Below, one piece after another: positions 2,868-16,687 of a stretch of 18,655 bases of DNA. The position numbers and the translations under genes were made by a program. Position 1 is the first letter of the stretch. Each line of letters begins with the position of its first letter. This DNA is from a virus. Where the stretch lies: UHGV virus genome UHGV-2101173. One strand, 5' to 3'. Below the pieces are notes generated by a model. It made no database searches. It was not told where the DNA came from and saw only the letters and a list, made by a program, of their open reading frames with translations.

Positions 2868-3415
2868 TTATTTAGCTAACTTTTTCCAGATCGCTGAAAC
2901 GTATTTGGCTTGGTGAATGGCATCATCAAGCGCGTTGTGGCGAGTTCCTTTGAATGGCATATCTCGCTTAGGGTCGAATCCTATTGCCTTCCCAAGTTCG
3001 ACGATTGTTCTTACGTCGCGGTCATTCCACCACTGCCACGGAACTGGCTGCCCTGTCAGCGAATAACTGTTGCGGAGAATAACGCAGTCAAATGATGCTC
3101 CATTCCCCCAAACCTGAACGAATTTGTGGTTAGCGTTCTTTATGATGAATTCAGATAACCATGAAAGAGCCGTTGAGAGCTCTTGAGTGTTGCTGGTTAG
3201 CGATTTTCTGGCTTCTTCACTCTGTTCCATCCACCATAAAATCGTTGAAGCGTCAGGACGCGCCCGATATCGCATTGATGACTCAAGCGAGATATTTACC
3301 GAGAACTCTTCTCCTGTTTCTCCGGTATTCGGGTCAAAGAATACCGCCCAATAGAAATAACTGGCGCGTATGGCCCGTTGCCCATTGTTTCAAGGTCAAC
3401 CATCAAGTGATTCAT
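2868..3415 (-). pseudogene. DEDDh-type 3'-5' exonuclease (DnaQ-like), interrupted by a -1 frameshift near 3340..3350
   Basis: Frame A (3415..3296) encodes MNHLMVDLETMGNGPYAPVISIG then stops; this carries the Exo I motif D-x-E. Track ORF 2868..3275 in another frame carries Exo II (GNGASFDCVIL) and Exo III (HNALDDAIH). That frame stays open upstream as ...AVFFDPNTGETGEEF... with no start codon. The two frames join at attgggcggtattc, where a GGG run sits. Confidence 0.6.
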
Positions 3416-3423
3416 GTAAGTCC

Positions 3424-3939
3424 TTAAATTGCGTGAATAGCGTGACGAGGGAAGGGGAGAGTTACTGGTGCAAAGGGGATGTCGTCGTCAAAATCCATAG
3501 GTGGTTCGCTGTGATTTCCCTGCTGCTGAGGTTGCTGTCTTTGTTGCTGACCATTATTTCGCTGAGGTGAAGACTGTTCATTGCCTCCTTGCTTGCCACC
3601 AAGCATTTGCATGGTTCCACCAACGCCCACGATGACTTCGGTAGTGAACCGATCCTGTCCGCTTTGATCCTGCCATTTTCTTGTCCGCAATTTGCCTTCA
3701 AGATAAACCTCAGAGCCTTTTCGCAGATATTCGCTGGCAATTTCTGCCAGTTTCCCGCTCATTACCACGCGGTGCCACTCCGTCTGCTCCTTTTGCTCTC
3801 CAGTTTGCTTATCACGCCATTGTTCTGACGTAGCAACGGTAAGGTTTGCAAATGCCGTTCCTGATGGTGAATATCTGATTTCTGGATCATGCCCAAGGCG
3901 ACCAATAATGATCACCTTATTTACGCCTCTGCTTGCCAT
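3424..3939 (-). CDS. ssb: Single-stranded DNA-binding protein (SSB) with a C-terminal extension
   Basis: ORF track; OB-fold-like N-terminus, Gly/Gln-rich linker, conserved acidic tip MDFDDDIPF. The frame continues 15 codons past the tip ([15 protein letters not shown]). Confidence 0.85.
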
Positions 3940-11016: not shown

Positions 11017-11303
11017 CTGGAAAAGAAATCATCCTGGAATATCTGAAAACTCATGAACAATTCTCCCCACATGAATTAGCACTGATCACCGGAATACCAA
11101 ATAACAGAATCGCTCAAGCAGCAAGGCATATGGTGAAACAAGGGAATTTGAGTGTTGTTGAGCGTAAGTGGAAGACGGTTATTTATGCAAAACGCAAAGT
11201 GAAGAAGGAGCCAATTAAAAGAAATCCAGATGGTACGGGGTGGGGATGTGCAAATCCAATGACGGCGTTTATTAATAGGGCGCTTATGGAGGTAAGGCAA
11301 TGA
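11013..11303 (+). CDS. ren: Ren-like protein
   Basis: ORF track (GTG start overlapping the loader stop). N-terminus MTGKEIILEYLKTHEQFSPHELALITG resembles lambda Ren as recalled. Confidence 0.65.
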   Translation: MTGKEIILEYLKTHEQFSPHELALITGIPNNRIAQAARHMVKQGNLSVVERKWKTVIYAKRKVKKEPIKRNPDGTGWGCANPMTAFINRALMEVRQ

Positions 11304-11328
11304 CCATCTACATCACTGAGCTAATAAC

Positions 11329-11360
11329 AGGCCTGCTGGTAATCGCAGGCCTTTTTATTT
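11329..11360 (+). terminator. tR2-like intrinsic terminator
   Basis: 8-bp stem aggcctgc/gcaggcct (11329..11352) followed by TTTTATTT; located between ren and ninB. Confidence 0.75.
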
Positions 11361-14448: not shown

Positions 14449-14633
14449 ACGCCACAATTCAAACGATACCAGAGCTTCTTATCCAGACACGAGGCAATCA
14501 GACCGAAGTGGCGAGGATGCTTTCCTGTGCAAGAGGAACAGTGCTCAAGTACAACCGAGACAGCAAAGGCGAGCGTCACGTAATAGTTAACGGCGTCCTG
14601 ATGGTCAAACAAGGCAAGAGGGGAAGACGATGA
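14445..14633 (+). CDS. ninH: NinH-like protein
   Basis: ORF track; ...TIPELLIQTRGNQTEVARMLSCARGTVLKYNRD... parallels lambda NinH as recalled; immediately upstream of Q. Confidence 0.7.
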   Translation: MNATIQTIPELLIQTRGNQTEVARMLSCARGTVLKYNRDSKGERHVIVNGVLMVKQGKRGRR

Positions 14634-15253
14634 GACTCGAAAGCGTAGCTAAATTTCATTCGCCAAAAAGCCCGATGATGAGCGACTCACCACGGGCTAC
14701 GGCTTCTGACTCTCTTTCCGGTACTGATGTGATGGCTGCTATGGGGATGGCGCAATCACAAGCCGGATTCGGAATGGCTGCATTCTGTGGTAAGCACGAA
14801 CTCAGCCAGAACGACAAACAAAAGGCTATCAACTATCTGATGCAATTTGCACACAAGGTATCGGGGAAATACCGTGGCGTGGCAAAGCTTGAAGGAAATA
14901 CTAAGGCAAAGGTACTGCAAGTGCTCGCAACATTCGCTTATGCGGATTATTGCCGTAGTGCCGCGACGCCGGGCGCAAGATGCAGAGATTGCCACGGTAC
15001 AGGCCGTGCGGTTGATATAGCCAAAACGGAGCAGTGGGGGAGAGTTGTTGAGAAAGAGTGCGGAAGATGCAAAGGTGTCGGCTATTCAAGAATGCCAGCA
15101 AGCGCCGCATATCGCGCTGTAACGATGCTAATCCCAAACCTTACTCAACCCACCTGGTCACGCACTGTTAAGCCGCTGTATGACGCTCTGGTGGTGCAAT
15201 GCCACAAAGAAGAGTCAATTGCAGACAACATTTTGAATGCGGTCACACGTTAG
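14630..15253 (+). CDS. Q: Late-gene antiterminator Q (lambda Q type)
   Basis: ORF track; 207 aa beginning MRLESVAKFHSPKSPMMSDSPRATASD... with zinc-binding CRDCHGTGRA...CGRCKGVG; near-identical to lambda Q as recalled. Confidence 0.9.
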   Translation: MRLESVAKFHSPKSPMMSDSPRATASDSLSGTDVMAAMGMAQSQAGFGMAAFCGKHELSQNDKQKAINYLMQFAHKVSGKYRGVAKLEGNTKAKVLQVLATFAYADYCRSAATPGARCRDCHGTGRAVDIAKTEQWGRVVEKECGRCKGVGYSRMPASAAYRAVTMLIPNLTQPTWSRTVKPLYDALVVQCHKEESIADNILNAVTR

Positions 15254-15295
15254 CGGCATGATTGCCACGGATGGCAACATATTAACGACATGATA

Positions 15296-15324
15296 TTGAC
15301 TTTTTGAATAAAGTTGGGTAAATT
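15296..15324 (+). promoter_or_regulatory. pR' late promoter (with adjacent qut region)
   Basis: -35 TTGACT (15296..15301), 17-nt spacer, -10 TAAATT (15319..15324), followed by tgactcAACGAT as in lambda pR'/qut. Confidence 0.75.
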
Positions 15325-15359
15325 TGACTCAACGATGGATAAATGCACTCGTTAAATAA

Positions 15360-15388
15360 AGCCCTGAGTTAATAGCTCGGGGCTTTTT
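15360..15388 (+). terminator. tR'-like intrinsic terminator about 57 nt downstream of the pR' start
   Basis: 9-bp stem (one G-U) agccctgag/ctcggggct with 7-nt loop, followed by TTTTT (15384..15388). Confidence 0.7.
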
Positions 15389-16363
15389 GCGTTTGCACAA
15401 CAGGTAAGAGCATTCTCCCTTATGGGGCTTGGCTTAAATGCACCGAGTGCTCTTATCGTTGTGGCAGCACAACGATAGTTTTCGTCAGAGTTGGCGACTT
15501 TGCGGGTTTTTAGAAACTGACCACAAAGATAAATGCAAACGATGATTTGATGTTGATGGCGGCCTAAGAAACCAAAGTCACGGGGTCTTCCGATTCCCCG
15601 CTACCAAATTCGGCGCAGTGGCCCGCTGTGATTAATAATGGGCACCCAATAATGAGAGCGTTGGACAGTGGCGATGAGATTTCGCAACCCAGGAGCCAAT
15701 AGATCGGGGATAGTGCGCATAATACCGATTGAGGTGAGTGCTGGAATAAGCATCGGGAGTCATGACCCAACATGATGCGGGAAAGCCAGCCACCGAGAGA
15801 CCCGGCAGGGTAAACCGGCCTTCCGCTTGGTTATCAAGCAATAATAGCGCTCTCATTCGTGGGTAACAACGGGCATGTCGCCTTAGTAAATCCCTCAAGG
15901 GTGCGACGCATAGACCGGTACTAGCGTCGCCGTTAGCTCCACGAAACGGAGCGCACAACAGGTAAGAGTATTTGTAGAGTTCGACTCTCTACCGTGGGAT
16001 TTTTTCCGCGATGCGAGCCATAAATGCTCTTTCCGTTGTGCTGAATTAAGCGAATGCCGGAAGCAGAACCGGATCACCAAATGCGTACAGGCGTCATCGC
16101 CGCCCAGCAACAGCACAACCCAAACTTAGCCGTAGCCACTGGCTATCCTGAACTCATCAGTGATAGTTATGCTGCGGCCTTCTACGCATGACCTTCGTGA
16201 AAGCGGGTGGCAAGAGGCTGCGCTAACAACCTCCTGCCGTTTTGCCCGTGCATATCGGTCACGAACAAATCTGATTACTAAACACAGTAGCCTGGATTTG
16301 TTCTATCAGTAATCGACCTTATTCCTAATTAAATAGAGCAAATCCCCTTATTGGGGGTAAGAC

Positions 16364-16687
16364 ATGAAGATGCCAGAAAAACATGACCTGTTAGCCGCCA
16401 TTCTCGCGGCAAAGGAACAAGGCATCGGGGCAATCCTTGCGTTTGCAATGGCGTACCTTCGCGGCAGATATAATGGCGGTGCGTTTACAAAAACAGTAAT
16501 CGACGCAACGATGTGCGCCATTATCGCCTGGTTCATTCGTGACCTTCTCGACTTAGCCGGACTAAGTAGCAATCTCGCTTATATAACGAGCGTGTTCATC
16601 GGCTACATCGGTACTGACTCGATTGGTTCGCTTATCAAACGCTTCGCTGCTAAAAAAGCCGGAGTAGAAGATGGTGGAAATCAATAA
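16364..16687 (+). CDS. S: Holin S (dual-start S107/S105 type)
   Basis: ORF track; [39 protein letters not shown]... near-identical to lambda S as recalled, with the MKM dual-start motif. Confidence 0.9.

Follow-up and report, generated by a model that had tools for sequence, protein, structure and literature searches.

What is the roughly 600-bp segment that lies between the terminator tR' and the holin gene S in the virus genome UHGV-2101173? The window that we analysed, one whole stretch of 18,655 nucleotides, contains the late-control region of a lambda-like prophage, with Q at 14630-15253 and S starting at 16364. Read from its letters alone, the segment had been described (the original prediction) as a non-coding replacement of lambda sequence, bounded by a 15-bp direct repeat and ending in a tRNA-like 3' fragment, and had been tentatively taken for either a decayed tRNA or cargo locus or a structured RNA made late. 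Comparison with lambda (NC_001416) confirms the replacement: directly after tR', lambda carries TTTTTTATATCT-GCACAACAGGTAAGAGCATT-(39 nt)-AGTGCTCTTTCCGTTGTGCTGAATTAAGCG, the window has about 600 bp in place of the 39-nt spacer, and near-identity to lambda (about 97%) resumes at 16026, in the second 3' hairpin arm described below, and continues through to S. We lean slightly towards the view that the segment belongs to a large family of phage RNAs, so far without annotation, that share a module resembling the message part of transfer-messenger RNA (tmRNA), and that it would supply a tag-template RNA which, late in infection, takes part in trans-translation or acts on it.

The centre of the segment, between two hairpins that we call cassettes 1 and 2, is a core of about 170 nt (15478-15643). 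Within it lies a short tag frame without a start codon, in which the resume codon GCA directly follows AUAAAU; an in-frame UAG eight codons upstream is invariant. Among 39 distinct versions of the frame, 36 run for exactly ten sense codons before they stop, with TAA in 33, TAG in two and TGA in one. Codon 10 is always Ala, written as GCG, GCC, GCT or GCA; codon 2 is Asn, as AAC or AAT; codons 3 and 4 specify Asp, Glu or Asn; and codon 7 is Leu, as CUG or UUG. The resulting pattern is A-N-[DE]-[DEN]-x-[hydrophobic]-L-[AM]-[AV]-A, with tags including ANDDVVLMAA, ANEEMYLAVA, ANDEQFLAVA, ANDNTFLAVA (Vi01) and ANDDLMMVAA (P1), and further ANDNAFRVAA (7-11) and ANDSEMRVDA (Erwinia). By contrast, an overlapping AUG frame varies from 5 to 9 codons. 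With its fixed length, stop-to-stop changes and synonymous Ala codons, the tag frame looks translated. The nucleotides A-6, U-5 and A-4 before the resume codon are invariant in the alignment and identical to those of Escherichia coli ssrA (AAUAGUC before GCA), where the U-5/A-4 region sets the resume frame. The literature searched contained none of the tag peptides, nor any description of a tmRNA-like RNA in P1, Vi01-like, G7C-like, HK633 or related phages. The original prediction had found no credible open reading frame (ORF), which holds in so far as no ORF in the segment matches Pfam or PHROG, but the start-less 10-codon frame at 15535-15567 had been overlooked. A protein-coding explanation of the segment was rejected on these negative searches and on insertions in the pseudoknot stems, which are not multiples of three.

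We derived the structure of the core by hand and tested it on an alignment of 95 cores (94 distinct homologues), collected by an exact 24-mer that covers the helix preceding the frame. In the hairpin around the stop codon, one pair switches from G-C (56 rows) to A-U (38 rows). Two pseudoknots follow. Pseudoknot A has compensatory changes in five of its nine pairs, and the P1 and 7-11 lineages have GUCG/CGAC in place of its loop pairing CCGA/UCGG. Pseudoknot B takes the form CAN/N'UG plus GCCC/GGGC across the alignment, with a near-invariant loop UGUGAUUAAUAA (UGAUUAAUAAU in the window); the middle pair of its stem S1 is seen as C-G, U-A and G-C, and its stem S2 is lengthened in some phages by complementary insertions. 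Under the proposed structure 94.5% of the paired cells can pair, as against 32-51% with slid partners. Both sides have changed at 13 of the pairs (208 cells), and none of 500 shuffles reaches the observed score. A start-less frame, a stop codon held in a hairpin and two pseudoknots together give the layout of the message half of a tmRNA, and we are highly confident of the core as a genuine conserved RNA of the tmRNA-like message type. The loop of pseudoknot B also contains UGAUUAA (15629-15639), complementary to UUAAUCA in E. coli ssrA; a pairing with host ssrA was rejected, being only 7 nt long, not kept in the P1-type loop and probably due to chance.

Judged by its promoters, the element is transcribed late. 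The promoter pR' drives all of it and needs Q antitermination; in HK633 the homologous promoter site is annotated as pR'/qut. There is no internal promoter within the segment downstream of pR' and tR', and the only evident source of the element RNA is the late, Q-dependent pR' transcript. A position downstream of pR' and tR', together with helices and pseudoknots that carry compensatory changes in the 94 distinct homologues, upholds the earlier suggestion of a structured RNA made late.

How far the core extends beyond this prophage was determined with 15465-15655 as the query, which retrieved 361 phage records by megablast and 470 by blastn, from phages of Salmonella (192), Klebsiella (107), Escherichia (104), Erwinia (23) and other hosts. 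The carriers span at least six phage groups, and in nearly all records the core is not annotated. Across unrelated phages it is 72-90% identical, with compensatory changes, and is under strong purifying selection in hundreds of phages. The search for related phage loci did find relatives of the core, and they show no decay. The exact 24-mer occurs in at least 120 IMG/VR contigs. Among complete E. coli genomes, 670 of 5426 (about 12%) contain the core; plasmids, most of them P1-like and about 90-130 kb in size, account for 568 places and chromosomes for 151. It is present in only 4 of 185,579 species-representative bacterial genomes and is therefore phage-borne. The full arrangement of the window is rare, being found in two E. 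coli genomes, where PGAP annotates nothing.

The carriers include well-studied systems: the ban operon of P1, HK633, lambda-like prophages and the BASEL phages. In P1 and P7 the core lies in the C1-controlled ban operon, directly after the 'dicF-like region' and before trnA/trnT; in the P1 reference (NC_005856) it occupies 68877-69085, and about 450 nt within 68791-69423 are unannotated. It is also found in Ackermannviridae of the Vi01/Det7 type, G7C-like Schitoviridae, BASEL phages Bas77-79, Klebsiella siphophages such as MK54, Salmonella phage 7-11 and Erwinia phages, and in the lambdoid HK633 it stands between pR'/qut and the holin gene. In virulent phages and in P1 the core heads clusters of tRNA genes on the same strand, a genomic context that points to translation. 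ARAGORN, Rfam and PGAP all miss this RNA, which leaves a gap in annotation.

The only Rfam families that match the segment at permissive thresholds are tmRNA models, and these align over 15513-15567 only. In six homologues as well as in the window, the tag region is matched by tmRNA_permuted, beta_tmRNA and tmRNA, with 22.9-33.7 bits for tmRNA_permuted. The window remains below the Rfam gathering scores (22.9 against 47 bits for RF04321, 17.3 against 84 for RF01850), and no family reaches its gathering score in the segment. Infernal and Rfam, to which the original prediction had pointed, therefore gave nothing at gathering score and, below it, tmRNA models over the tag region. The tRNA model RF00005 has no match at E<=10 in 15250-16400, and the ARAGORN check on the segment found neither a tRNA nor a tmRNA.

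Several observations weigh against the reading as a tag-template RNA. Run with default settings, ARAGORN calls no tRNA or tmRNA in the window, in 123 loci or in constructs artificially un-permuted by re-joining candidate acceptor halves, and the Rfam alignments skip the tRNA-domain part of the model. Virulent siphophages have, in 34 loci, a near-consensus promoter (TTGACA-17-TAGATT) whose end is 62-64 nt from the resume codon, and the RNA would begin at about ...AGAUAGUUUUCG, some 55 nt before that codon; with the promoter so placed, a 5' acceptor strand has no room there. Global alignment against shuffled sequences shows no significant similarity between the sequence that precedes the resume codon and E. 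coli ssrA (z 0.7-1.4), and nhmmer finds no match of the core to host ssrA. The helix at the PK1 position is predicted thermodynamically and lacks covariation in our sample, its columns being invariant because the homologues were collected by the exact 24-mer that spans it; in G7C-like and Erwinia phages this pre-frame element differs. The endings ...VDA and ...AVA of some tags are not those of classic ClpX degrons, and no cassette type is universally linked to the core. Judged by its sequence, the core fails membership of the tmRNAs on their defining tRNA-like domain, in which a 7-bp acceptor stem with G3.U70, a T arm and a 3' CCA adjoin the message.

Other routes to a tmRNA identity were followed and abandoned. 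Homology to the ssrA acceptor, D-loop or P2, suggested by the by-eye likeness of GUUUUCGUC to GGAUUCGAC and by GGGGCU...CUCC in the insert of cassette 1, is not significant against shuffles. A hidden standard or permuted tmRNA was rejected because ARAGORN was negative at default on native and un-permuted constructs alike. With its thresholds lowered to 80%, ARAGORN does report a 'permuted tmRNA' whose tags are right, but the same output has many obvious false positives; the tRNA domains borrow neighbouring tRNAs, and these calls were not accepted.

On the reading that we favour, that of a tag-template RNA, the long late transcript would be processed at the flanking cassettes, and the core thereby set free; cassettes with tRNA-like or ribozyme inserts, or abutting tRNAs, would punctuate the transcript and release the core. 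Once freed, the core would serve as a tagging template on ribosomes stalled late in infection, so that unfinished proteins would receive a degradation tag specified by the phage and ribosomes would be recycled as host mRNA decays. Since no canonical Ala-accepting tRNA-like domain is attached, the core would be either the coding piece of a split system or an RNA acting on the host tmRNA-SmpB pathway. The acceptor may come from a loop-closed tRNA-like domain in cassette 2, from the conserved G.U of the cassette arms or from host tmRNA-SmpB; cassette 2 has the right topology and a G.U pair, yet it is inconsistently linked to the core. A role of the core in trans-translation is plausible but unproven, and that its frame is actually used for tagging seems to us to fall a little short of an even chance. 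More tentatively still, enterobacterial phages (P1, lambdoids, Vi01-like, N4/G7C-like and many siphophages) may encode a new class of trans-translation RNA that consists of the message half only and is decoded on stalled ribosomes, with an acceptor supplied in trans by a tRNA-like cassette RNA or by host tmRNA-SmpB; the phage would thus rewrite the rescue tag and take ribosome rescue over during lytic growth. Trans-translation is thought to require one RNA that serves as both tRNA and mRNA; a selected tag frame without a tRNA half would mean a new split architecture or mode of delivery, or manipulation of ribosome rescue by phages with half-molecules.

The cassettes account for the direct repeat. 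GCACAACAGGTAAGAG occurs exactly twice in the window (15395-15410 and 15953-15968, both on the plus strand), against 0.01 occurrences expected by chance, and the repeat extends to 20/21 nt. As a repeat it therefore stands; as a boundary or target-site duplication it does not, its copies being the 5' arms of hairpins whose 3' arms lie at 15446-15464 and 16023-16041. The outer cassette stem has at least three versions, each with complementary sides (CACAAC/GTTGTG, CGAAATC/GTTTTCG and AACTATC/GATAGTT), and the inner arm retains a U.U mismatch and, in 93 of 106, a U.G wobble. Because the outer stems covary and the arms have partners, selection acts on the hairpin, and the repeat is no target-site duplication. 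In other phages, arms of this A type (3' arm AGTGCTCTT(A/T)(T/C)CGTTGTG) flank at least 50 unrelated inserts of 22-273 nt. The window differs from lambda through recombination between such shared arms.

Cassette 1 also has counterparts in MK54, P1-like plasmids and other loci; it is not consistently adjacent to the core, from which it is 800 nt away in the P1-like plasmids. A terminator-like hairpin overlaps its 3' arm, so that the two structures are mutually exclusive, and this hairpin could be a switch or a second terminator just before the core. Cassette 2 contains the supposed tRNA-like 3' fragment, of which one part survives: 15974-15992 reads GTAGAG-TTCGACT-CTCTAC and forms a hairpin with a 7-nt loop of the T-loop type. 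The supposed acceptor strand, CCGTGGG, pairs locally with CCGCG at 16006-16010 to give CGUGG/CCGCG (CGUGGG/CCCGCG in most other copies of the cassette); it is thus one strand of a small hairpin, and no orphan acceptor strand is left. Hairpins resembling T arms could recruit RNase P or the CCA-adding enzyme, a feature that they may share with the stable RNAs of phage tRNA clusters. Cassettes of this type occur in 38 loci, 32 of which can be judged upstream; the core is upstream in 17 of these 32, while the other 15 copies directly follow a lambda-type tR', without a nearby core. As a dedicated tRNA-like partner of the core, cassette 2 was rejected on these counts (only 17/32 with an upstream core).

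Between the core and cassette 2 lie two further modules. The arms of cassette B enclose other inserts in Bas78 and other loci; its own 187-nt insert, which as part of the cassette folds better than shuffled sequences, is without a homologue in the phage and plasmid collections and is common only to E. coli PEC301 and one IMG/VR contig. In region C, a stem covaries (GCUCC/GGAGC against GCCAC/GUGGC) around an invariant loop. This loop is complementary to UUUCGU in the 5' flank of the core, a pairing that is putative here; in other loci ACGAAAC pairs with GUUUUCGU as a true helix. No cassette type being universally linked to the core, we regard the cassettes as independent modules.

The array ends in a closing module of the lambda type, whose 9-bp stem exists in four covarying, complementary versions across phages. 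In other loci (in one contig at 1700-1860) its two hairpin loops are complementary to each other (GCUGAU/AUCAGC; ACUGAU/AUCAGU in MK54), which suggests a kissing-loop fold resembling the tRNA elbow, and there the 5' end of the next tRNA gene directly abuts the module. The tR'-S spacer of lambda itself (NC_001416, about 44700-44890) consists of one cassette hairpin plus the 9-bp closing stem GUUGUGCUG/CAGCACAAC, and both elements are conserved and covary in many unrelated phages. Such conservation points to a structured RNA scaffold in the late leader of lambda, and the spacer is apparently the remnant of a modular one. The coordinates of all these features are collected in Table 1.

Table 1. 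Features of the segment between Q and S in the window
Feature	Position	Strand	Description
Late promoter pR'	15296-15324	+	TTGACT-17-TAAATT
Terminator tR'	15358-15390	+	13-bp hairpin and T run; directly 5' of the element
Cassette hairpin 1	15395-15464	+	Minimum free energy -33.1 kcal/mol, z -4.6
Cassette 1, 5' arm	15395-15414		First repeat copy
Cassette 1, insert	15415-15445		31 nt, CUCCCUUAUGGGGCUUGGCUUAAAUGCACCG
Cassette 1, 3' arm	15446-15464		
Alternative hairpin	15453-15478	+	AUCGUUGUG-GCAG-CACAACGAU, then U-rich tract; terminator-like; competes with 3' arm of cassette 1
Core, 5' part	15478-15534	+	Invariant GUUUUCGUC (15478-15486); small variable hairpin (15482-15497)
Nested helix before the frame	15498-15528	+	CUUUG/CAAAG and GGUU/GACC; position of tmRNA PK1; predicted
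Tag frame	15535-15567	+	GCA AAC GAU GAU UUG AUG UUG AUG GCG GCC UAA; ANDDLMLMAA, stop
Helix-5-like hairpin	15554-15580	+	UGAU/GUCA outer stem; encloses the stop codon
Pseudoknot A	15581-15613	+	Stem CGGGG/CCCCG (15581-15585 with 15596-15600); loop pairing CCGA (15590-15593) with UCGG (15610-15613)
Pseudoknot B	15616-15643	+	CAG/CUG (15616-15618 with 15626-15628); GCCC/GGGC (15621-15624 with 15640-15643)
Cassette B	15645-15863	+	Fold closes the arms, z -3.0
Cassette B, 5' arm	15645-15660		CCCAAUAAUGAGAGCG
Cassette B, insert	15661-15847		187 nt, orphan
Cassette B, 3' arm	15848-15863		CGCUCUCAUUCGUGGG
Region C	15864-15952	+	Conserved GGGUAACAACGGGCAUGUCGCC...; variable hairpin (15903-15929); hairpin GCUCC-ACGAAAC-GGAGC (15936-15952)
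Cassette hairpin 2	15953-16041	+	Minimum free energy -40.1 kcal/mol, z -5.5
Cassette 2, 5' arm	15953-15972		Second repeat copy
Cassette 2, insert	15973-16022		T-arm-like hairpin (15974-15992); CGUGG/CCGCG hairpin with U.G pair (15993-16010)
Cassette 2, 3' arm	16023-16041		
Closing module, lambda type	16035-16119	+	GUUGUGCUG (16035-16043) with CAGCACAAC (16111-16119); fold z -2.3; common to lambda

Across phages, the modules combined with the core on the same strand are A-type and B-type cassettes, region C, the closing module and true tRNA genes (Arg, Met, Ser, Thr, Asn and Ile). The cassette inserts include T-arm-like minihelices and a candidate type I hammerhead, and one Sib RNA occurs in the arrays. 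The hammerhead candidate (RF00163), which some lambdoid contigs have in a cassette immediately 3' of the core (11291-11337, minus strand), has all nucleotides of the catalytic core and scores 24.7 bits, below the gathering score of 34 (E 0.028). In Vi01-like loci, STnc100 (RF02076) has matches at gathering score that lie 0.8-1 kb downstream of the core, and the P1-like phage MH445381 has a partial match (contig positions of these matches: 2223-2436 and 1118-1331 on the minus strand, 3695-3815 on the plus strand); part of the array therefore belongs to the STnc100/PasD family of prophage small RNAs (sRNAs). A Sib antitoxin RNA (type I toxin-antitoxin, 107.8 bits) lies about 200 nt downstream of the core in one contig (1600-1748, plus strand). 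In G7C-like phages, Salmonella phage 7-11 and Erwinia phages, tRNA-sized genes come right after the core (2900-3320, 1389-1550 and 1379-1453); they have a good T arm, a 7-bp acceptor stem, sometimes an encoded CCA, and aberrant bodies, and ARAGORN at default does not call them. Some contigs have ORFs directly after the core, about 230-260 nt past the resume codon (for example MSLTKEYLSDVLSYSPETGVFKWK...), which resemble homing endonucleases of the HNH/AP2 type by eye; this hints at mobility of modules.

Could the core affect the host pathway without being a template at all? The main rival to our reading is an RNA without a tRNA-like domain that acts as a decoy or regulator of host trans-translation: a mimic of the message half would titrate or redirect the SmpB tail, S1 or RNase R, its frame would stay untranslated, and the outcome would be altered ribosome rescue or tag-dependent proteolysis. 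We consider this unlikely, though it deserves more weight than the other rivals. A tRNA-like domain is not detectable, the core is the only universal module, and the opposite case has been published, the tRNA-domain-only tmRNA of mycobacteriophage DS6A, with a similar molecule that inhibits tmRNA (PMC4131195, PMC11915505). A decoy fits the missing tRNA half, but it does not fit the constraints at codon level, as it needs neither a frame of fixed length nor stop-to-stop changes, nor an Ala kept through four synonymous codons. If the missing half is instead sought within the window, cassette 2 could be a loop-closed tRNA-like domain that works with the upstream core as a complete permuted, split tmRNA, made functional by cleavage in the U-rich loop, CCA addition and alanylation. 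The layout of cassette 2 (a T-arm-like hairpin, a 5-bp hairpin with G.U third from the loop, a 14-nt loop and a long closing helix) gives an order of helix, T arm, G.U stem of correct polarity, unpaired stretch and helix that fits the topology of the tmRNA tRNA domain. The T-loop-type hairpin is very unlikely to arise by chance and has similar counterparts in the cassettes of other phages, and the loop of region C could dock on the 5' flank of the core. Nevertheless, the commonest version of the hairpin has six pairs, which makes G.U the fourth; 15 of the 32 judgeable copies of cassette 2 stand directly after a lambda-type tR' with no core nearby, and many core-bearing phages lack it; ARAGORN rejects the un-permuted construct; no CCA is encoded; and the T arm is absent from the minimum-free-energy fold. 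We hold such a split tmRNA to be improbable.

Slightly less credible again is an array of Hfq-type sRNAs or sponges, as in the Q-to-lysis region of lambdoid prophages, with the tag-like frame left over from a captured ssrA fragment. CACAAC motifs abound in the element, prophage sRNAs are documented at this position (bioRxiv 10.64898/2026.05.13.724894), and downstream of the core STnc100 does reach its gathering score in Vi01-like loci and in part matches P1; the window, however, has no match to AgvB, AsxR or STnc100 at E<=10, and the codon-level constraints on the frame, with its retention in lytic phages of six groups, argue against a relic. That leaves the decayed tRNA or cargo locus of the original prediction, or a small mobile insertion with a 15-bp target duplication. 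The direct repeat is real, a T-arm-like hairpin is present and other phages have tRNA genes in the equivalent region, yet neither ARAGORN nor Rfam (no tRNA match at E<=10) detects a tRNA, the would-be acceptor strand is locally paired, and the central 170 nt, conserved at 72-90% across unrelated phages with compensatory changes, are under purifying selection. Each copy of the repeat is one arm of a hairpin whose other arm is present, the locus has no associated transposase or integrase, and no recombinase gene or protein family occurs in the segment; with arms that covary and no recombinase, a repeat-bounded insertion or mobile element is rejected. We give decay or insertion hardly any credence.

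Set beside known systems, the core most resembles the message part of one-piece tmRNA (SsrA, RF00023). It shares the start-less GCA frame, preceded by a structured element and followed by pseudoknots, A(-6)U(-5)A(-4) as in E. coli, a 10-residue tag of the form ANDx...AA and a stop codon enclosed by a hairpin. Unlike one-piece tmRNA, it lacks an acceptor stem, a T arm and a CCA attached to the message, has only two pseudoknots after the frame and shows no significant similarity to host ssrA outside the frame; it is phage-borne and embedded in cassette hairpins. The two-piece, permuted tmRNAs of alpha- and beta-proteobacteria and cyanobacteria (RF04321, RF01849-51) provide the best Rfam matches, below threshold. 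In them, too, the coding piece is physically apart from the acceptor 3' piece, and processing of the precursor by tRNA enzymes is a further shared idea; but their known coding pieces start with a 5' acceptor strand and an analogue of the D-loop, for which the phage transcript or the upstream hairpin leaves no place. With the Q-to-lysis prophage sRNAs (STnc100/PasD, PasA/C, AgvB, AsxR) and the lambda 6S/late leader, the element has in common its niche and its modular arrays, and the closing module of the window is homologous to the tR'-S spacer of lambda. Those prophage sRNAs are nevertheless short, Hfq-dependent base-pairing RNAs without a conserved tag frame or two pseudoknots. The species 1 and 2 RNAs of T4 are stable non-tRNA RNAs co-transcribed with phage tRNAs, and have no tag frame.

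Among phages, the nearest parallels are the tmRNAs of mycobacteriophages (Bxz1, cluster C) and of Bacillus phage G, in which a gene related to trans-translation also sits among phage tRNA genes. An exhaustive survey in 2014 found ssrA in no viral genomes other than those of mycobacteriophages (PMC4131195), and a tmRNA database paper of 2025 makes no mention of enterobacterial phages; the core has been missed by exhaustive surveys for ssrA (PMC4131195). Bxz1, cluster C and phage G encode complete tmRNAs and DS6A a tRNA-like half, all of them found by standard tools. The RNA of DS6A, confined to the tRNA domain, shows that phages can carry half a tmRNA, and the core described here corresponds to the complementary half.

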